Part shown: positions 17,966 through 50,698 of the stretch, piece by piece
How the letters are laid out: each line of letters begins with the position of its first letter
Numbering within the stretch: the stretch's first letter is position 1
IMG/VR virus record: IMGVR_UViG_2563366998_000011
Coordinates: 1-53,254 of that record
DNA: 53,254 bases
Reading direction: 5' to 3' (one strand)
From: a virus
Lineage: Duplodnaviria > Heunggongvirae > Uroviricota > Caudoviricetes
The notes under the pieces: generated by a model
What the model saw: only the letters and a program-made list of their open reading frames with translations
The model's database searches: none
Told to the model about the DNA's origin: nothing
Made by a program: the position numbers and the translations under genes

Positions 17966-18144
17966 AAAACGAAGTTAAAGATCTGCAAATAGATATTCAG
18001 CGCGATGAGCATGATTTAGCTACAGTCCGACAAATCCGGGCTTTTCATATGCGCGAATTGCTTGCATTGAAAGAGCTTGAGAAAAAGTTAGTCCAGTCTA
18101 TTTCTGATCGTAAACAACTTATTGCTCGTTACGGGGGGAAATAA
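17962..18144 (+). CDS. Hypothetical protein
   Basis: 60 aa ORF coupled to flanking genes. Confidence 0.35.
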   Translation: MKNEVKDLQIDIQRDEHDLATVRQIRAFHMRELLALKELEKKLVQSISDRKQLIARYGGK

Positions 18145-18866
18145 TGAATTTAGAATCCATTCTGAAATTCCACTTTCCCAAATCACCGCGATTATCAGAC
18201 GAAAGCCGGGGCACATCCCCGGATGCGCTTAATACGACTGATGCGCTAACCGCTGCAGGTATGGCGCAATCGCGCGTAGAGCTTGGTTACAGCGCTTTTT
18301 TAGGGAAGATGGAACTATCGCAAGCCGAAAAACACAGGGCCGTAGTTTTGCTTACAGAGCGTTTAAGAGCTATGGCAAAAGATTACGAATACGTCATGGA
18401 GCTGGACGAGGACAAACGCAATGATCTTATTATTCTTGTTGCCGTTTTCGCGTTTCGGGATTACTGCCAGAGTGCCGCGACAGAAAAAACTTGTATGGAT
18501 TGCGGCGGATATAAATTTACGTTTGACGACTACGGAGAAAAACACCTTTGCAAAAAATGCAAGGGGCATGGAAAAGTTCGCAATCATTGTAAACGATGCA
18601 AAGGGCGCGGCGAGATACCGGATAAAGCAGCCAGTGAAGCAGCGGAAATGCCAGTGTTCAAAACGTGCCAGCATTGCGGCGGGCGCGGGTACTCGCGTTT
18701 CCCTGTAGATCTTGTCCGGCGTGCGGTTAATCAGCTTGTATTTCCGGTAAGCCGATCAACATGGTGGAAAAAATACCGGGTTTTCTATGAAGACGCCATC
18801 GCTGAATTGTTCAAGGAAGAGGCGCGGGCTGATAACGAAATTAAACGAGTTACGCGGGGTGAATGA
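18144..18866 (+). CDS. Q-like late antiterminator candidate with four CxxCxGxG zinc-finger repeats
   Basis: 240 aa; directly downstream of rusA (Q position in nin region); CMDCGGYK, CKKCKGHG, CKRCKGRG, CQHCGGRG repeats; assignment by position and zinc-finger content only. Confidence 0.45.
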   Translation: MNLESILKFHFPKSPRLSDESRGTSPDALNTTDALTAAGMAQSRVELGYSAFLGKMELSQAEKHRAVVLLTERLRAMAKDYEYVMELDEDKRNDLIILVAVFAFRDYCQSAATEKTCMDCGGYKFTFDDYGEKHLCKKCKGHGKVRNHCKRCKGRGEIPDKAASEAAEMPVFKTCQHCGGRGYSRFPVDLVRRAVNQLVFPVSRSTWWKKYRVFYEDAIAELFKEEARADNEIKRVTRGE

Positions 18867-20468: not shown

Positions 20469-20702
20469 ATGTGTATCTATGAACACAAGCGGGATAAAAC
20501 CCGCTTTTTTGTTCGTGCTGGCGTGGCTTACCAGTATCACGACTGCGGATATATCGAGGCGCTTGCTTACGATCTGGACTTCGAACAAGAAAAAGAATGG
20601 TTCGATTTCAAAATTTACCGGAAGCGTAAACCGACGCGCGACGAGCGACACGCTATCCGGGACTTTTTAATCAGCATAGACCGCTGGGAGACAGAGGAAT
20701 GA
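20469..20702 (+). CDS. Hypothetical protein
   Basis: ORF 20424..20702, ATG at 20469. Confidence 0.4.
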   Translation: MCIYEHKRDKTRFFVRAGVAYQYHDCGYIEALAYDLDFEQEKEWFDFKIYRKRKPTRDERHAIRDFLISIDRWETEE

Positions 20703-23293: not shown

Positions 23294-23480
23294 ATGCCTT
23301 ATCGCTGTGATTGTTTTGCTTTATATCGCTGGCGCGATCCTGATGTCATGTTTTATTAAGTTTAGCGGCGCTGAACCTGGTGGCCTTGAGATTCCTTTTT
23401 GGCCTGTGACTGTGTTTATCGCTTTCTTCGACGCTACGGCAGAGCAGATCAATCGAGCTATTAAGGAGCGCAAGAAATGA
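23286..23480 (+). CDS. Small membrane protein
   Basis: ORF 23166..23480; ATG cluster at 23280-23286; two hydrophobic helices. Confidence 0.4.
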   Translation: MIECLIAVIVLLYIAGAILMSCFIKFSGAEPGGLEIPFWPVTVFIAFFDATAEQINRAIKERKK

Positions 23481-23656
23481 TTGAAGATGGGGTGTACGCA
23501 ACAGTAGTAGACGGGCTGTTTTACCGCGTAGAAGGTGATGATATTCGCATCCGCGTTGGCGGTGGTGAGTGGGTAGCGCCAATCATTAAGACGACGCGAG
23601 AAACAATTAAAATATTTCTTGATGCTGGTGAACTGGTGAGGGTTAGCGACCTATGA
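23477..23656 (+). CDS. Hypothetical protein (59 aa)
   Basis: MIEDGVYATVVDG...; paralogous N-terminus with next gene. Confidence 0.35.
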   Translation: MIEDGVYATVVDGLFYRVEGDDIRIRVGGGEWVAPIIKTTRETIKIFLDAGELVRVSDL

Positions 23657-23829
23657 ACGAGATCGAAGATGGTATCTATTTACATAAGGTATTTAACATC
23701 GTCTATTTGGTTAGAGGTGAATCGGTGATGATAAGACCTGATGATGATCCTTATTGGGAATTAAGCGACATGGATCGGTGGCATATGCAAACATTGCTTG
23801 ATAATGGCCTGATATATAGAAAGCCGTAA
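23653..23829 (+). CDS. Hypothetical protein (58 aa)
   Basis: MNEIEDGIYLHK...; shares IEDG(V/I)Y start with previous gene. Confidence 0.35.
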   Translation: MNEIEDGIYLHKVFNIVYLVRGESVMIRPDDDPYWELSDMDRWHMQTLLDNGLIYRKP

Positions 23830-23851
23830 AGCCGTATTTGTTGGGGGGAAT

Positions 23852-24079
23852 ATGGAAGAAATGGTTTTACTGTCATCAATATGGCATCGGTTCGGAACTG
23901 AAAAAGGATACTCACCTGCTTGCTGGCTGGATAGTAAAAGCGGAAAGGAGTATCAAAACGAGTGCGAATTTAGAAGGGAGTGGCGAGGTGGTAAGGAAGT
24001 GCAAGGATATTTTGCACCAAAACACGTTGCCGCCAAATACAAAGAATGGCTTGTGCGTTTGCTTGGCCCTTATCGTTAA
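23852..24079 (+). CDS. Hypothetical protein
   Basis: 75 aa ORF flanked by 15-bp direct repeats TAAAGCCGTATTTGT. Confidence 0.4.
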   Translation: MEEMVLLSSIWHRFGTEKGYSPACWLDSKSGKEYQNECEFRREWRGGKEVQGYFAPKHVAAKYKEWLVRLLGPYR

Positions 24080-24087
24080 AGCCGTAT

Positions 24088-24116
24088 TTGTAGGGCGTAA
24101 ACAAACAGATTAAAAT
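24088..24116 (+). promoter_or_regulatory. Candidate late promoter (pR'-like)
   Basis: TTGTAG, 17-bp spacer, TAAAAT; upstream of tR'-like terminator and lysis cassette. Confidence 0.3.
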
Positions 24117-24144
24117 ATTCTCTAACAATGCGAAACTGTAACTA

Positions 24145-24172
24145 CCCGGCCCAGCGCCGGGTTTTTGCTTTG
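24145..24172 (+). terminator. tR'-like intrinsic terminator immediately upstream of the holin gene
   Basis: hairpin CCCGGC-CCAGC-GCCGGG followed by TTTTTGCTTTG; 15 nt before holin RBS. Confidence 0.55.
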
Positions 24173-24186
24173 TTGGAGGTAAATCT

Positions 24187-24387
24187 ATGTTCGACAAAAT
24201 ACGGGCGGCGTGCGCTTATGTAACAGGGACCGTAACCGCTTTTTTTGGTGCGATAACCATTAATGACGTTGCCGTCTTTGTGGGTATCTTATCAACCATT
24301 GGCACATTTGCCGTTAACTATTACTTCAAATCACAGGAGAACAAGCGAGCGCAAGAGGAACACGACGCACGAATGGGGAATAAGTAA
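24187..24387 (+). CDS. Holin, pinholin-like (phage 21 S type)
   Basis: 66 aa; two TM segments then YFK and charged tail; GGAGG RBS; directly precedes SAR endolysin. Confidence 0.7.
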
Positions 24388-24388
24388 C

Positions 24389-24880
24389 ATGATTAGCCAA
24401 TCGCTAAAGAATAAAATTATTGCTGCGGCGGCTGGTGGGGCTATCGCTATTGCGGCTGTGATGGTTAAACCATTGGAAGGCGTGGAATATGATCCTTATC
24501 GTGATGTTGTCGGTGTATGGACTGTTTGCCACGGTCACACCGGAAAGGACATCATGCTTGGTAAGACTTACACGCAATTTGAATGCGATGCTTTGTTGAA
24601 CAAAGATCTACACAAAACCGCAAAAGCGATTGACCCATATATCAAAGTCGAAATATCAGATTTTACCCGCGCAGCACTTTATTCATTCGCCTATAACGTA
24701 GGCGCAACCAACTTCAAAACATCAACCTTATTAAAGCTACTTAATGACGGCAAGAAATCGGAAGCGTGCGCACAGCTTAAACGCTGGGTATACGCTGGCG
24801 GTAAGAAGTGGCAAGGCCTGGTTAACCGCCGTGATATTGAATATGCCGTTTGCGAATGGGGTGAAACATGGACAAGGTGA
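24389..24880 (+). CDS. R: SAR endolysin (lysozyme, phage 21 R type)
   Basis: ORF 24263..24880, ATG at 24389; N-terminal signal-anchor-release segment [15 protein letters not shown]; [33 protein letters not shown] matches phage 21 lysozyme as recalled. Confidence 0.9.
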
Positions 24881-28848: not shown

Positions 28849-28975
28849 GTTATTGATTATTATCAACTTCGAAAAATTTTCGAAGATGAACAAGAATAAT
28901 TCTCAATTGGCTACATAAAATCTGTCTCACAATCCCCCACAAGTTTTTCTATTTTTCGCGTAGCAACGCGTAAAC

Positions 28976-30382
28976 ATGTATTCAGGAGTAAACATTATGC
29001 CATCCAATTTAGAATTGGCGGTTAATGCTGCCTTGTCACAACGCAAGGCGGCCTTTGCCCGCTATGCAGCCGCTAACCCATTCTCAATGGGTATTGATGC
29101 AAAACGTGATGCTGCGTGGAGTGAATACGGATTCAAAGAAGAAATCACCTATGACGATTTATACAAACTGTATCGTCGCGGTGGTATCGCTCACGGTGCT
29201 ATTGAGAAGATCATCACTACGTGCTGGCGCACCAGGCCAACGCTGATCGAAGGTACGGAAGACGAGAAAGCAGAAAAGGAAACGCCGTGGGAAAGAGAAA
29301 TCAAAAAACAATTTGATAATCGTTTCTGGCGCGTCATAGCTGAATGTGATCGCCGCCGCCTCATTGGTCGTTATGCTGGCCTGTTGATTCATGTCAGAGA
29401 TAACCAGCCGTGGGATCAGCCAGTAACAAAAGGCGTAGGCATTGCCAAATTTACTCCAGTATGGGCTGGTGCTCTGACGCCGAAGGACTTCGAAGAAAAC
29501 CCGGATAAAGAAAACTATGGCCTGCCTACATGGTGGGAATACAAGGAGCGCATCAATAGTAAGACCATAGCAAGAAAGATACATCCAGACCGGATATTCA
29601 TCTTCGGTGACTATTCTGATGATGCTATCGCTTTCCTTGAGCCGTCCTATAACGCTTTTGTATCGCTGGAGAAAGTGGAAGGAGGTAGCGGTGAATCCTT
29701 TCTAAAAAACGCCGCACGTCAACTGGCTATCTCGTTCGATAAAGAGATTGATTTCCGTTCCCTGGCTGCAACATACGGTTGCGACGTTACAGAGCTACGC
29801 GAAAAATTCAATGAAGCGGCAGAGGATATAAACAAAGGGAATGATGTGATGATGGCATTACAGGGAGCCACCGTTAGCCCGCTGGTCACTGCCGTAGCAG
29901 ATCCGTCCGCAACCTATGACGTCAACCTGCAAACCGCCGCCGCTGGTATCGACATTCCAACGCGTATCCTGGTTGGGAATCAGCAGGGCGAACGCGCATC
30001 AACTGAAGACCTCCGCTACTTCAATAATCGCTGTATGACCCGCCGTGAGGAAATAGGAGGCGAGCTTGAGGAACTATTCCGCAAGATGGCAGATCTCCGC
30101 CTTATCAGTATGCCAGTCGATGTATCAGTGTTATGGGATGACCTTAACGCCATGACAAAAGCCGAACTACTGGAAGCGGCACACAAGATGGCGCAAATCA
30201 ATCAGGCATGTCTCGCTACTGGTGAGGAAATATTTAGCGGCGATGAGATCCGCGAAGCTGCCGGATATGAAGGGCCAACGCAGGAAGTAGAAGTGGAAGA
30301 CGAGGACGATAAAGATGAAGATGAAGATGAAAGTAAAGAGAATAATCAAAAAGATTCCGCCGTCCGCGATAATGCCATCTAA
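28976..30382 (+). CDS. Portal protein (putative)
   Basis: 468 aa; position between terminase and MuF-like head protein; acidic C-terminal tail. Confidence 0.6.
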   Translation: MYSGVNIMPSNLELAVNAALSQRKAAFARYAAANPFSMGIDAKRDAAWSEYGFKEEITYDDLYKLYRRGGIAHGAIEKIITTCWRTRPTLIEGTEDEKAEKETPWEREIKKQFDNRFWRVIAECDRRRLIGRYAGLLIHVRDNQPWDQPVTKGVGIAKFTPVWAGALTPKDFEENPDKENYGLPTWWEYKERINSKTIARKIHPDRIFIFGDYSDDAIAFLEPSYNAFVSLEKVEGGSGESFLKNAARQLAISFDKEIDFRSLAATYGCDVTELREKFNEAAEDINKGNDVMMALQGATVSPLVTAVADPSATYDVNLQTAAAGIDIPTRILVGNQQGERASTEDLRYFNNRCMTRREEIGGELEELFRKMADLRLISMPVDVSVLWDDLNAMTKAELLEAAHKMAQINQACLATGEEIFSGDEIREAAGYEGPTQEVEVEDEDDKDEDEDESKENNQKDSAVRDNAI

Positions 30383-37560: not shown

Positions 37561-38220
37561 TTAATTCCAGTTGCAAGCGTTTTTCACTTTGTCGATGTGG
37601 TTATAAAGACCATCAATGTTAAACACTGCTTTCTCAATGTCGCCAGCTTCCGGCACTACTTCAATGATGAATTGTTTTTCGTTAACCAGTTTTTTAATCA
37701 TTGGGATGGCTTTTTTGCCGTCCCATAATCCAAGAGCTTTATAATTAGTTGACCGCCACCACTCAGTAGCTACAGCTTTGTGAACGCCGATCCGGTAGTT
37801 AATATAAGTAGTGTCCCCGGCGTCAGTTACATGGTGTGACCATGCTACGAACATTTTTGTTTTATTACCCTGGCAAGCGATTGTTAATACCGGTTTATTC
37901 TTATCCTGTGCCTTCAGTGTCGGGAAAGCATCAAGACTTCCGCTGAATTGTTCTGCTTTCACAAAAAGGAATACGTTTTTTGCGTCCTGCATATCATCTT
38001 TTCTTTCAACTACAAGCCACTGTTTACCAGCATTTTCTTTTTCTAACTGTGCATCGTATGCGGCTTGTTTTGCTTGTTGTTCTGCAAGCCATTTAGCATT
38101 TTTCTCTGCTAATGCTTGTTGCTCTTGATTGGTCACTATAGGCGCTTTTTCATTATCCTCATTGCAACCAACCAGACCCAATACCGCCGCAATCATTGCC
38201 ACTTTTGCTAACCGTTTCAT
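37561..38220 (-). CDS. Lipoprotein (antisense moron in tail cluster)
   Basis: 219 aa; signal peptide and lipobox LVGC. Confidence 0.7.
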   Translation of the reverse strand: MKRLAKVAMIAAVLGLVGCNEDNEKAPIVTNQEQQALAEKNAKWLAEQQAKQAAYDAQLEKENAGKQWLVVERKDDMQDAKNVFLFVKAEQFSGSLDAFPTLKAQDKNKPVLTIACQGNKTKMFVAWSHHVTDAGDTTYINYRIGVHKAVATEWWRSTNYKALGLWDGKKAIPMIKKLVNEKQFIIEVVPEAGDIEKAVFNIDGLYNHIDKVKNACNWN

Positions 38221-38347
38221 AACCCACCACGCTAACTTGATTTACTGACCATTCCCTTTAGCTTCCTTATACAAAATGGAGTCGTTGAAGTAAAGCCATT
38301 TTGTATAAAATAGATACACAGATCACATTTTTGCATGAGGTTAAATC

Positions 38348-41916: not shown

Positions 41917-42083
41917 TTTGGGCCTCCTTCGTTGGTACTACTTTCTTCTTGCTTTCTATATACATCTTGTTGCGTGCTATGTGAAGCCATTTTGTAAACT
42001 AGCTATAATCATTGTGACAATGATCTTATTTTTCGCGTAGAAGCGCGTAAAGATATATACAAAATGTAACTTGTGGGGGGTTT

Positions 42084-44401: not shown

Positions 44402-45133
44402 ATGGCACTTGAAGATAAAATGATTCGCTATGCAGCAGCCCACCCGCGCGAGGAAGTGTGCGGGCTGGTGATAGATAACGATTATTTTTACCCGTGCGCT
44501 AACGTGTCTGAAACGCCGCACAACAGCTTTAAAATCTCGCCTGACGATTATATCAAAGCTGACGAATTGGGCGTTATAACAGCCGTTTTCCACTCTCACG
44601 TTGAAGATATTCCGGTATTGTCGGCACGGGATCGACAACAGCAGGTTATTTCCGGCCTGCCGTGGTTTTTATGTTCCGGTGGCATGGTGAGGAAATTCCG
44701 CCCGGTGGCGCACCTGTTAGGCCGTAAATTTGAACACGGGAAAACAGATTGCTACTCGCTTTTTCGTGACGCCTATCACCTTTGCGGCGTGGATCTGCCT
44801 GACTTTGAACGCCACGATGGGTGGTGGCTGCGTGGGGAAAACCTGTACATAAAAAACCTGCCATTGAACGGGTTTTTCATGGTTGATGCGCAAAGCATTC
44901 AGCCTGGTGACGTGATTATTCGCCAGCCGTTCAAGGGTGCTGACCCATGTCACGCGATGATTTACCTGGGCGATAACACTGTTTTGCATCATGACAATGC
45001 CGGACTGCTAAGCCGCCGCGAGCAAATGCGGCCCGCGTATGTTCGACAAACGCATTCAATATGGAGATCTGACAAATGCTCAAATTTAGATTTACGGGCA
45101 ATCTTCGAAGATATTACGGCAAAGTGTGTTTAA
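44402..45133 (+). CDS. K: Tail assembly protein K (JAB/MPN plus NlpC/P60-like)
   Basis: ORF 44306..45133; start MALEDK at 44402 right after L stop; AVFHSHV MPN-type motif; position between L and I. Confidence 0.8.
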   Translation: MALEDKMIRYAAAHPREEVCGLVIDNDYFYPCANVSETPHNSFKISPDDYIKADELGVITAVFHSHVEDIPVLSARDRQQQVISGLPWFLCSGGMVRKFRPVAHLLGRKFEHGKTDCYSLFRDAYHLCGVDLPDFERHDGWWLRGENLYIKNLPLNGFFMVDAQSIQPGDVIIRQPFKGADPCHAMIYLGDNTVLHHDNAGLLSRREQMRPAYVRQTHSIWRSDKCSNLDLRAIFEDITAKCV

Positions 45134-48600: not shown

Positions 48601-50698
48601 GAATGTGATGGACACAAACCTTAAAGGTCAGATCTCTAATGTGCAACGCGCAGTAGCTGACGAGGCCAGCGCCCGCGCTGAAGCTATTAACGGTGTAAAT
48701 GCCTCAATAAGCAATCTTGACAAGAAAACTGACGCCAGCGTAAACCGTCTTGATCAGGCAATTGCAGACGAAACAAGTGCGCGTACTCAGGCTATCAGCG
48801 ACGTGAACGCAAGTATCTCAACACTTGACAAGAAAACTGACGCCAGCGTTAAGCGCCTCGATAATGCAATATCAGATGAAACGCAGGCAAGAAGCGACGC
48901 AATAACAGTGGTTAAAGCTGATTTAACAACGCTTGAAAATAACACAAATGCCAGTGTTAGCCGTCTTGATCAAGCTATCGCTGATGAATCAAGCGCACGT
49001 GCTCAGGCGATATCAGGTATCAGCGCGACGCTTGGCGGCGTTAAAAGTGAGGTTGATAAAAACAGCGACGAGATAGATCAGGCGAAAGCAAGTCTGCAAA
49101 ACGCATCTCTGGCGCTTATTAATAACTCAATGGCGCAAAGCAAGATGAGCACTGTTATTGAGGCGAAATACAGGAAAGGACAAACAAAAACAAAAGCGGA
49201 AATAGCAAGGGTAGACACAGCAATCGCAGATGAGGCGAGCGCACGCGCAGAAGCTATTAGCAACGTTAACGCCAGCGTCAGTAGTCTTGAAAGCAAAACC
49301 GACGCGAGCGTTTCCCGTCTTGATAAAGCAATCGCAGATGAGGCGAGCGCACGCGCAGAAGCTATTAGCAACGTTAACGCCAGCGTCAGTAGTCTTGAAA
49401 GCAAAACCGACGCGAGCGTTTCCCGTCTTGATAAAGCAATCGCAGATGAGGCGAGCGCACGCGCAGAAGCTATTAGCGGGGTTAATGCGTCAATTTCCAC
49501 GCTCGATAGCAAGGTGACAAGCAACGTAACCAGGATGGATAAAGCGATCGCAGATGAGAAGAATGCACGCACTGACGCAATCAGCAGCCTTAACTCATCG
49601 CTTACCAGTACGATTAATTCGAAAGTATCCGAAGTGTCAACTGCACTTTCTACGCATGAAACATCAAGCGCGGAAAAATTTGGCCAGATCTCGGCATCTT
49701 TCGACGATGTAAACTCAAGCATCACGGAATGGTCACAGGCTATGGCAACGGCAGACGAGGCATTGTCAACCAGAATCGACCAGTTGAAAGTAACTATTAA
49801 CGGAAACACAACGGCGATAGAAACGACATCAAAAGCACTGACTGACTTCAAAGGTAACGTTGATGCGTCATATTCAATTAAGATTGCCACTGATAAAAAC
49901 GGTATGAAATACGCTACAGGAATGTCGCTCGGCCTTACTGGTAGCGGGACTAACGTTCAATCGCAGTGTATTTTCCTCGTTGACCGTTTCGTGCTTATGA
50001 CTGCGGCAGGTGGCTCCTATCAGACCCCGTTCTATGTTACTAACGGTGCTTGCTACATCCGTGATGCGTGGATCAGAGACGCATCAATCACTACCGCGAA
50101 GATTGCGCAGCAAATTCAGTCAACCAACTATAAAGCTGGTTCGGCTGGCTGGATGCTAAATAAAAACGGCAATGCGGAGTTCAACAACGTCACTGTACGC
50201 GGTACGGTGTACGCAACATCTGGTAAATTCACTGGTGAGATTCAGGCCACAAGCGGGAAGTTTAAAGGTACAGTAGAGGCAAAGTCATTTGTCGGTGACG
50301 TTGCTAACATGGGGGTTGGTCCAGATCGAGTGCTTGGGCATAACGGAAGTTATAGCGCAACCATCACATATAAAGACAGCACGGATAATGCATTGACGAA
50401 ATCAGTTATGCTTATGGCGACTATTTCATTAATGTCTGGTGAATATAGATCCACTTATAACGTAACGTTTAGTTGCGGAGATAAAAACAAAACAATTTCA
50501 TATTACGTGCCTTATGGTGGATGCACATTAACAGTGCAATGCGCTTTTTCTGGTTTAAAAGCATCAGATATTATCGGGAAAATATATTGTCCTCAAACAT
50601 CATCATCTGAAGGATACGCATATTGTACCGCGTTGTATTCTCCAACAATGATAGTAGCAAGAGGCACCGGATCATTTAGAACATCAACGACAGCATAA
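45620..50698 (+). CDS. J: Host specificity / central tail fiber protein J with expanded repetitive central region
   Basis: 1692 aa; N-terminal 900 aa and C-terminal domain colinear with lambda J (AISEGPI, FGCTSRGQAHRAG, AVQH.P.K.A.VDNGA); about 460 aa of 36-aa repeats inserted (lambda J is 1132 aa). Confidence 0.9.
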   Translation: MSSGGGKAKTPTLLNDNLYHKQFYRVLDILSEGPIYGPVNQKAPLNDVMLNDTPVTDANGNTSIPGISIAWRNGTADQSPINGFNAIESTVIVNAKVTHDTPIIRTVSDPNVTRVRLNLGVDALVQSDEKGNQYNTSVMLMVDVKPSSSSTWSLIKDIHIGPGKQSGEYLEAHIIKAPDEKPFDIRVRRITPDSNGDLLRNDTRWSSYSEIIDDNLSYPHTAVAGAVIDHDQYTDTPTRTYHLRGLIVDVPDNYNPETRTYSGLWLGGFKKAYTNNPAWLFRYLVKNERFGLARHAGYIDVDDGALYVLSQYCDQLVDDGYGGLEPRMTLNAYITEQMSARDLLDNIAGMFRGIALWDGQRLTVMIDAPQDPIATITNANVVDGAFTRSSIARAECYNAVIVSWTDPENGWEQSKEYVADDKLIARDGYNETTLEAFGCTSRGQAHRAGKWLIETAKREPSKFTFKMARDAIHFTPGDIIEILDNNRAGARLGGRIVANNGRAITVDKVDSEYIAAGDTISLLDSDGKFKKHQIIGVNGNIITLAAAPAWIRNGTVFAVSTNAAKPVLCRITSVAETENNSVYTIEAAQHDPHKQAVVDNGAIFEINNDTLNHFRVPNIENLKVLNVGSETVQCRATWETQTTTRRLTFEIRVYNAEGAVVKSYETTNYSYDFYGIDAGNYSLGIRGRNDTGMKGAESIVDLVIGAPAAPVGVNWVPGVFQATVYPISRTTLTTDTSYEFYYSGETQITDPASITTKAQYTGRGHQWTFGGMNTGHTYYVYVRARNAFGVSDFVEASGKPTENFDEITDYVTKDVMNSKQFKEMVGDIKDLGDRTDLIESATNDLKTATDNLKTATDNLTNITDDLRTETDNLTIETGSIKADTDTLKKETEDLYKKVKENADDIGQHESRIDSLEVSSEKVGSELAQAKASLQNASLALINNSLAQTNTRVTLTAQYKKGRTETKAEIDRIDNVIAEEKKATAESLETITAEMNVMDTNLKGQISNVQRAVADEASARAEAINGVNASISNLDKKTDASVNRLDQAIADETSARTQAISDVNASISTLDKKTDASVKRLDNAISDETQARSDAITVVKADLTTLENNTNASVSRLDQAIADESSARAQAISGISATLGGVKSEVDKNSDEIDQAKASLQNASLALINNSMAQSKMSTVIEAKYRKGQTKTKAEIARVDTAIADEASARAEAISNVNASVSSLESKTDASVSRLDKAIADEASARAEAISNVNASVSSLESKTDASVSRLDKAIADEASARAEAISGVNASISTLDSKVTSNVTRMDKAIADEKNARTDAISSLNSSLTSTINSKVSEVSTALSTHETSSAEKFGQISASFDDVNSSITEWSQAMATADEALSTRIDQLKVTINGNTTAIETTSKALTDFKGNVDASYSIKIATDKNGMKYATGMSLGLTGSGTNVQSQCIFLVDRFVLMTAAGGSYQTPFYVTNGACYIRDAWIRDASITTAKIAQQIQSTNYKAGSAGWMLNKNGNAEFNNVTVRGTVYATSGKFTGEIQATSGKFKGTVEAKSFVGDVANMGVGPDRVLGHNGSYSATITYKDSTDNALTKSVMLMATISLMSGEYRSTYNVTFSCGDKNKTISYYVPYGGCTLTVQCAFSGLKASDIIGKIYCPQTSSSEGYAYCTALYSPTMIVARGTGSFRTSTTA
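49220..49477 (+). repeat. Perfect 108-bp tandem duplication (2 exact copies plus partial third) inside J
   Basis: 49220-49327 and 49328-49435 identical; encodes 36-aa unit ...AIADEASARAEAISNVNASVSSLESKTDASVSRLDK; degenerate copies upstream 48640-49030. Confidence 0.9.

Follow-up and report, generated by a model that had tools for sequence, protein, structure and literature searches.

The window analysed here, that is, the entire 53,254-nt stretch of the IMG/VR virus record IMGVR_UViG_2563366998_000011, contains two exact copies of a 15-bp direct repeat on either side of a 75-aa open reading frame (ORF75), shortly before a terminator hairpin and the holin gene. Comparison with related phages suggests that two features meet at this position. 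The repeats represent the edges of a 250-bp presence/absence polymorphism carrying ORF75, an accessory gene, and as a pair they would have no regulatory role; the approximately 90 nt between position 24099 and the holin ATG are a candidate lambda-type late control region, dependent on the antiterminator Q. A probability of roughly 0.7 is assigned to this two-part explanation taken as a whole. The repeats would be ordinary, and the control region a putative case of a familiar kind, unusual in its placement and lacking a conserved -35 element.

By its sequence, the window is a mEp021-like (mEpimmI) temperate coliphage. The region matches only one group, the mEp021-like Nus-dependent, non-lambdoid temperate coliphages, which have been described as equalling lambdoid phages in prevalence within a collection obtained from human faeces (PMC11893012). 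Seven relatives are present in GenBank (mEp021, mEp010, mEp013, mEp044, mEp515, mEp554 and MagusPhagus). The junction survey covered 51 loci carrying the block downstream of the 15-mer, and the conservation profile 52 loci representing 37 distinct haplotypes; IMG/VR loci were retrieved with a pattern over 24122-24149, and the profile was anchored at 24168-24189. A survey of 5,426 complete E. coli genomes gave 32 prophages with the conserved block (strains with such prophages include NZ_CP030768 and NZ_CP116987), and a scan of the GTDB representative genomes with Q did not find relatives.

The direct repeats and the 250-bp indel

Both copies of the 15-mer TAAAGCCGTATTTGT are exact and lie on the plus strand at 23827-23841 and 24077-24091, bracketing ORF75 as a previous sequence-only reading of the window had stated. 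No further copy with up to two mismatches is present on either strand of the window. Ungapped extension lengthens the repeat to 24 nt with 21 matches (21/24, 88%), at a spacing of exactly 250 bp, and the first three nucleotides of each copy form the TAA stop codon of the preceding ORF (23653-23829 and 23852-24079, respectively). Repeat length alone proves nothing, because exact 15-16-nt pairs arise elsewhere in the window by chance (two others are found); the features not attributable to chance are the 250-bp spacing, the identical register of both copies and the comparative data.

Alignment with the seven GenBank relatives gives a clean 250-bp gap, with one (G)TAAAGCCGTATTTGT copy at the junction. 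The extra unit of the window, exactly 250 bp long, consists of a ribosome-binding site (RBS), ORF75 and the second copy of the 15-mer. In all seven relatives, which lack ORF75, the homologue of the 58-aa ORF at 23653-23829 (plus strand, phrog_15318) is followed by about 105 nt and then by the holin gene; this ORF is the last one before holin in most relatives, and its TAA constitutes the first three nucleotides of the left copy. The 'empty' site has the order gene58-TAA-AGCCGTATTTGT-block, and at the 'filled' site the stop codon and at least the next 12 nt are repeated beyond ORF75. The left copy forms the left edge of the indel, whose body (23842-24076, plus strand) contains a G-run Shine-Dalgarno sequence at 23843-23848, followed by the ORF75 ATG at 23852, and leads into the stop codon at 24077-24079. 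The right copy corresponds to the single copy of the relatives, and its last four nucleotides overlap a -35-like hexamer. Since a single copy without ORF75 is found in the seven GenBank relatives and in most of the prophage and metagenome relatives, the repeats of the window delimit a presence/absence indel, the boundaries and distribution of which are directly observed. The 58-aa ORF and the 59-aa ORF preceding it (23477-23656) are tandem paralogues, both assigned to phrog_15318 and with no known function.

ORF75 is carried by 16 of the 51 loci and is intact in 15, all at the site seen in the window and with a repeat copy on both sides; in four ORF75-carrying loci the right copy is one base off. 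A junction of the 58-aa-ORF type with a single 15-mer, in some cases one A shorter, characterizes 25 loci. In the remaining ten ('class B') the last ORF is another one and the 15-mer is missing (…CATAATCGCGCATAAAAAACAAATAGATTAAAAT), with CATAATCGCGC in place of the right copy, and the downstream block is retained. Among the 32 E. coli prophages, ten have ORF75 and eight show the empty site beside the same flanking gene. In the other 14 the last ORF differs, and homology begins only near 24075-24099, mostly at 24099.

The suspicion raised by the sequence-only reading, namely that the repeats could be Q-loading or promoter elements, is not supported by these data. The left copy is present only where the 250-bp ORF cassette is, ten of the 51 loci keep the downstream block without any 15-mer, and variation in the 15-mer and at the -35 position equals or exceeds the neutral rate, with 11 of the 15 columns of the right copy variable in the 52-locus profile. 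Furthermore, Q-lambda binds a 13-bp non-repeat, asymmetric element as a monomer, and direct-repeat sites are typical of the unrelated Q21 family, in which tandem direct repeats (two subsites) are bound by two protomers (PMC9388147). The presence of direct repeats near a putative Q-dependent promoter does recall Q21, a likeness that probably gave rise to the suspicion. A Q21-type direct-repeat element was considered and rejected: the Q of the window belongs to PF03589, the two copies are 250 bp apart and not in tandem, and relatives have one copy or none. With regard to a promoter function, the only part that stands is the contribution of the last four bases of the right copy (TTGT) to a weak, non-conserved -35-like hexamer. 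Besides providing these bases, the right copy would restore the upstream context present before the insertion, and because the original upstream sequence is restored in this way, the context of the control region remains intact.

A different regulatory role would be possible if the 15-mer were a copy of a recurrent motif, AAGCC-N(1-3)-TTTGT, bound by a phage protein at several late-region sites. The motif has six matches in the window, all on the plus strand (1236, 23829, 24079, 33846, 38293 and 41984), against 0.43 expected, and those at 38293 and 41984 lie in conserved intergenic regions beside -10-like hexamers. However, the repeat accounts for two of the six and coding DNA contains another two, a 1-nt gap is needed to match the 15-mer, and the distance to the nearest -10 differs from site to site (19, 1 and 8 nt). 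In the late region the matches are half-sites belonging to inverted repeats (CCATTTTGTA/TACAAAATGG), whereas the 15-mer has no inverted partner and is missing altogether from class-B relatives. Such a role is considered very improbable, and the relation of the 15-mer to the late-region sites is unproven.

ORF75 looks like a real gene, because its counterpart in locus L008 shows 14 nucleotide differences from that of the window and only three amino acid differences, and because a G-run Shine-Dalgarno sequence lies upstream. It is assigned to phrog_23715, a PHROG of no known function, and occurs in two clusters among 5.8 billion proteins, both from mEp-like contigs; a tblastn search of 50,697 phage records gave no match. 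No family was above threshold in the domain search (KilA-N, with E=0.0065, is below the Pfam cut-off), and the AlphaFold single-sequence model, with a predicted local distance difference test score (pLDDT) of 64.5, gave nothing in Foldseek against the PDB at E<=0.001. The RBS region of ORF75 (TTTGTTGGGGGGAA, 23837-23850) resembles that of holin (TTTGTTGGAGGTAA, 24169-24182), which may hint at the origin of the left junction or may be due to chance.

The simplest reading of the indel is short-homology or unequal recombination at a gene boundary, where a recombination joint would yield the repeat pair on gain or would serve as the substrate for loss. The polymorphism is precisely edged, the empty site has a single copy, and similar indels occur nearby within the same small-ORF array. 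One of them, a single-ORF indel that distinguishes locus L055 (11067) from locus L056 (11067-11240), has the 7-bp edge repeat TATGAAA; another, a deletion in locus L011 (~840-850), has the 8-bp edge repeat AAGAAATG, equivalent to 23472-23479 and 23856-23863 of the window. The mEp021 genome encodes an Erf-type recombinase together with a single-stranded DNA-binding protein (SSB). The indel would represent ordinary mosaic turnover of the small-ORF array in mEp-like phages. Comparable joints at gene boundaries are the lambdoid 'boundary sequences' and morons, relaxed Rad52-like or Erf recombination and T4-type PeSL cassette shuffling. As in the joints of mosaic genomes, one small ORF is gained or lost at a gene boundary, with the repeat at both edges and once when the site is empty, in a hyperplastic region containing other such indels and in a phage group with an Erf-type recombinase. 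Unlike a strict moron, the 250-bp unit includes neither a promoter nor a terminator. The repeat of the window (15-24 bp) is also longer than the 7-8-bp repeats of the neighbouring indels, probably due to its place at the left edge of a conserved regulatory module. ORF75 is found on several haplotypes of the block, which requires no repeated events, because recombination in the homologous flanks explains the pattern.

The discrete 250-bp unit, the perfect 15-bp direct repeat and the single copy at the empty site are also what a target-site duplication by a small mobile element carrying ORF75 would leave behind. Nevertheless, the unit has no terminal inverted repeats, the family search revealed no mobility gene or mobility domain in it (transposase, integrase or endonuclease), and ORF75 has no family match above threshold. 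In all 16 carriers ORF75 occupies one and the same site, and nearby single-ORF indels are bordered by different short repeats. A duplication of 15-24 bp would also be unusually long for a target-site duplication. This origin is therefore hardly credible, and the recombination joint at a gene boundary is preferred.

The conserved block upstream of the holin gene

The approximately 90 nt from 24099 to the holin ATG are conserved more strongly than the third codon positions of holin, of which 35 of 67 are variable. Immediately upstream of the block, every column between 24092 and 24098 varies (7/7). The spacer core AAACAAACAGAT (24099-24110, plus strand) has three variable columns out of 12, and the following -10 hexamer TAAAAT (24111-24116, plus strand), which matches the consensus at 5/6 positions, is invariant (0/6) in the 37 haplotypes of the 52 loci. 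Variation reappears in the discriminator (24117-24123, four of seven columns) and ceases again at AACAAT (0/6) and in the 5' stem of the hairpin (0/7), although in the IMG/VR loci the retrieval pattern partly imposes the invariance of these last two. The anchoring of the profile likewise imposes part of the invariance within 24168-24189. Neither effect reaches the -10, the spacer, the loop or the 3' stem. Four of the five loop columns vary, giving eight loop variants, as opposed to one of seven in the 3' stem and one of 14 in the U-run (24163-24176). One-nucleotide indels are found in the loop (L014 and L032) and in the U-run (L029), where a small ORF (24128-24223) overlaps the block, so coding constraint on the hairpin and U-run can be ruled out. 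Because ORFs are closely packed in the mosaic DNA that separates Q from the block, it offers no other conserved non-coding site.

The pair TTGTAG (24088-24093) and TAAAAT (24111-24116), separated by 17 nt, is present as previously described and scores 8/12 against the consensus. The two hexamers behave very differently. The -35-like TTGTAG (plus strand), a 3/6 match, is replaced by TTGTGG or TTGTTG in other class-A relatives, by TCGCGC in class B and by AAGCGC in the sister group. The spacer core is retained, and it is here that most of the prophages with a different upstream gene regain homology; the sister-group spacer has AAACAA at the same place, in common with the window. Its position and conservation make the core at 24099-24110 a candidate Q-binding element. 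Seven nucleotides after the -10, at approximately +1 to +6, the -10-like AACAAT (24124-24129, plus strand) followed by G is a candidate sigma-dependent pause element (SDPE).

The lambda-family Q protein and related cassettes

The window encodes a 240-aa antiterminator of the lambda Q family (18144-18866, plus strand), assigned to PF03589 (E=1.6e-29) and to PHROG 127, 'anti-termination protein Q-like'. Its full-length identity to lambda Q is 35% (E=2e-48), and both this family membership and the element order described below are observed directly. Compared with lambda Q, it has a 31-aa CxxC..CxxC insertion, which adds two CxxC pairs where the zinc-ribbon arm begins (the segment termed the 'Q-lambda arm' in PMC9388147). 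In lambda, this arm makes contact with the Q-binding site and with sigma region 4. A DnaJ-like CxxCxGxG match occurs in many Q homologues (Serratia, Xenorhabdus and the sister phage group).

The DNA downstream of Q was compared in lambda and in homologues 32-49% identical to the Q of the window, using the definition of a Q cassette from PMC9388147. In all seven other lambda-family Q lineages, lambda included, a -10 element, 6 nt, AAYRAT-G and a terminator follow one another in this order. Lambda has TTGACT-N17, the -10 TAAATT, the gap TGACTC and AACGAT-GGG; the corresponding elements are TTGACG-N17, CATTAT, CACGCC and AATGAT-GGG in Pantoea, TTGACA-N16, CATAAT, GATTCT and AACAAT-GGC in Pectobacterium, and TTTACT-N16, TAATTT, CTTTCT and AACGAT-GGG in Serratia. 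Xenorhabdus shows TTGACA-N17, CATCAT, TGCTCT and AACGAT-GGG, and Citrobacter TTTACA-N17, TAATCT, GAAACC and AATGAT-GGA. The sister phage group (L055) has no recognisable -35, the -10 TATAAT, the gap TCCCTC and AATAAT-GGC, and the window has TTGTAG-N17, TAAAAT, the 7-nt gap ATTCTCT and AACAAT-GCG. The AACAAT-G of the window is thus placed as the AAYRAT-G of the seven other lineages. An intrinsic terminator follows in all the lineages compared, its U-run ending 49-221 nt beyond the pause-like element. Pectobacterium (CTAACAATGGCGAAATTG) and mEp021 (CTAACAATGCGAAATTG) have near-identical initially transcribed sequences. In the sister group, whose Q is 49% identical to that of the window, the architecture also lies directly before holin.

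Applied to lambda, the same way of reading the elements reproduces the known pR' start at 44587 and the 194-nt 6S RNA, and is thereby validated. The 17-nt stretch between the -35 and -10 hexamers of lambda pR' is TATTGAATAAAATTGGG, and it is there that the Q-binding element of lambda lies.

The resemblance to the lambda pR'/qut/tR' layout proposed in the sequence-only reading is thus borne out by the PF03589 Q and by the element order shared with seven other Q lineages, and interpretation of the block as pR', SDPE and tR' is supported by this comparison. As in lambda, a homologous Q is accompanied by a -10, a gap of 6-7 nt, AAYRAT and G, an intrinsic terminator and the lysis genes, and the promoter spacer between the -35 and -10 positions is conserved. 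In lambda the Q gene is 66 nt away; here the distance is 5.2 kb (about 1.9 kb in mEp021) and is taken up by some 25 small ORFs in a mosaic array, and the block in the window and its mEp-like relatives has no conserved -35. The hairpin begins about 21 nt after the putative start, so that an RNA of about 40-50 nt is predicted, versus 194 nt in lambda, and the U-run abuts the holin RBS, from which it is separated by about 400 nt in lambda. The Q of the window also carries the extra zinc-finger insertion in its arm.

Several points weigh against the control-region interpretation, beyond the partly forced invariance mentioned above. There is no conserved -35, the hexamer being a 3/6 match in the window and unrecognisable in class B and in the sister group, and a promoter consensus scan of the region did not call the TTGTAG-N17-TAAAAT site. 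At a loose threshold, double -10 motifs are frequent in the window (33 matches versus about 24 expected, not significant), and the strict motif occurs three times, once within a 434-aa ORF. The -10 lies 5245 nt after the Q stop codon, a distance that is 39-66 nt in six lambdoid lineages; the two mEp-like groups show 3.0 and 5.2 kb, with 14-20 nt from the U-run to the holin ATG. On the side of the indel, the data fit gain as well as loss, and no donor was found. Since the double -10 motif does not reach significance by itself, the case for a control region is built on conservation, on its position in the only conserved non-coding stretch from Q to the lysis genes, and on the recurrence of its architecture in diverged lineages.

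Alternatively, the hairpin could be merely the terminator closing the long rightward early operon, read through by means of the N-like Gp17 system or of Q loaded elsewhere. The block would then be an untranslated region, TAAAAT and AACAAT a coincidence, and the late promoter would lie in another place. The missing -35, the distance of 5.2 kb from Q and the fact that the double -10 motif is not rare by chance all agree with this view, as does the demonstrated N-like antitermination system of the mEp021 group, with its three nut sites (PMC11893012). It is, however, difficult to reconcile with the invariance of TAAAAT and AACAAT among variable neighbouring bases, with the same architecture in a sister group of different sequence and in all six lambdoid lineages having a PF03589 Q, or with the lack of any other conserved non-coding site between Q and the block. 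An early-operon terminator of this kind is considered unlikely, and a Q-dependent control region remains the favoured assignment.

A Q-utilisation site was also sought directly after Q. The next ORF overlaps the Q stop codon, so that the Q gene is not directly followed by a pR' unit, and there is no intergenic space at this point in the mEp group. The hairpin at 20487-20513, strongly terminator-like and accompanied by a T-run (AAGCGGGATAAAACCCGCTTTTTTGTT), was examined as a post-Q site and discarded, as it lies within an ORF (20469-20702) that is itself conserved. The hairpin is also kept in mEp021, in which the ORF pair comes directly after Q; the mEp515 record annotates predicted terminators in this region.

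Terminator, holin gene and RNA folding

The strong hairpin and T-run of the sequence-only reading are real. An intrinsic terminator (24144-24174, plus strand) is located between the pause-like element and the late genes, with a 7-bp GC-rich stem ACCCGGC/GCCGGGT (24144-24150/24156-24162), a 5-nt loop (24151-24155) and then TTTTTGCTTTGTT, the U-run beginning at 24162/3; the hairpin alone is predicted at -12.8 kcal/mol. The T-run had been placed 15 nt before the holin RBS, but this is the distance to the ATG at 24187; the T-rich tail abuts the Shine-Dalgarno sequence GGAGG (24175-24179). The holin gene (24187-24387, plus strand; Pfam PF16080, E=4.5e-16) is the first of the lysis cassette, followed by the lysozyme and Rz-like genes. 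The same hairpin before holin is annotated in GenBank as a predicted terminator in mEp021 (TERM_5) and in mEp010, mEp013, mEp044 and mEp515 (T8-T10); these records give the terminator only, with no promoter, pause element or link to Q. Terminators t1, t2 and t5 have been shown experimentally (PMC11893012); t5 may or may not correspond to the pre-holin hairpin. An Rfam scan of 23600-24400 gave only sub-threshold matches; the best of them, rnk_pseudo (23 bits versus a cut-off of 55), was dismissed as a terminator-like chance match.

In folding predictions, the RNA of 24117-24186 reaches -30 kcal/mol (z = -5.3), the terminator stem being extended by GCGAAA/UUUUGC and then by UCUCUAACAA/UUGUUGGAGG, which includes the holin Shine-Dalgarno sequence; when the RNA starts at 24124, most of this sequence is free. 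The extended stem could accordingly be a translational gate, in which UCUCU (24119-24123) pairs with the holin Shine-Dalgarno sequence, masked in early read-through transcripts and free in those from the late promoter. In addition to the folding energy and the UCUCUAACAA/UUGUUGGAGG pairing, the complementarity to the Shine-Dalgarno sequence is partly kept in all three discriminator variants and in the sister group, which has a comparable UCCC/GGGA pairing. Against this, no compensatory changes are seen, since the Shine-Dalgarno side is fixed and the discriminator changes are unmatched. Moreover, pyrimidine-rich discriminators ending in CT or CTC occur in most, although not all, of the lambda-family Q promoters compared, including that of lambda, where holin is far away. 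Extension of the stem by an A-tract and a U-tract is also common at intrinsic terminators. A translational gate is thus regarded as quite improbable, and the hairpin is preferentially assigned to a Q-sensitive terminator.

Proposed late switch and its significance

From the order and conservation of these elements we infer a start, a pause, Q binding and Q-dependent read-through. Sigma-70 RNA polymerase would start about 7 nt after TAAAAT, near 24123/24124; sigma would then re-bind the -10-like AACAAT, and the polymerase would pause about 16-17 nt downstream. In the absence of Q, the polymerase would halt at the hairpin and U-run, leaving an RNA of about 40-50 nt. Q, bound in the promoter spacer, would render the polymerase resistant to termination and allow it to read into the holin, lysozyme, spanin and structural genes.

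A bolder proposal is that the Q loading site of mEp-like phages has been uncoupled from the Q gene by 2-5 kb, with loss of the -35. Because the site is far from the Q gene and the -35 is lost, loading might not need an ordinary constitutive promoter, and together with the masked holin RBS this would create a two-layer lysis lock (terminator and RBS). The Q with its extra zinc finger could help to recruit polymerase to the -35-less promoter; alternatively, polymerase coming from the early operon could be re-bound by sigma on reaching the tandem -10-like elements. This extended scheme must be seen as speculative and has a low probability.

The distinction between a regulatory element and its look-alike is of practical relevance: the repeats would be an evolutionary scar and a wasted target for mutagenesis, and the 90-nt block is a testable candidate for the late promoter and Q-utilisation site of mEpimmI phages. 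The early N-like antitermination of these phages has already been studied, and no description of their late switch was found in the accessible literature; a Q-lambda-like protein is noted in PMC11893012, which gives no account of a late promoter or Q site. A compact version without a -35, located kilobases from Q, would extend the known range of lambda-family Q cassettes, and the indel provides a clean example of an accessory gene entering or leaving a phage genome with the adjacent control region undisturbed.

Other elements in the window

At 38267-38311, where the tape-measure gene (38348) is separated from a minus-strand gene (37561-38220), there is a conserved inverted repeat, TATACAAAATGG-N16-CCATTTTGTATA, with TAAAAT immediately after it. 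The element is shared by mEp021, MagusPhagus and mEp013 and resembles an operator or promoter region of the late operon. A 35-nt element, TATTTTTCGCGTAG(C/A)A(A/G)CGCGTAAA, occurs twice, 13 kb apart, at 41981-42069 and 28916-28984. Upstream of each copy come a -10-like hexamer, 6 nt and then CACAAT or GACAAT. The copy at 42 kb, which is conserved in three relatives, has the flanking half-sites CCATTTTGTA and TACAAAATG; these elements may be internal control sites of the late region. Near the right end of the window, at 48644-49537, five copies of a 108-nt repeat, 66-98% identical, are presumably contained in a tail-fibre-type gene.

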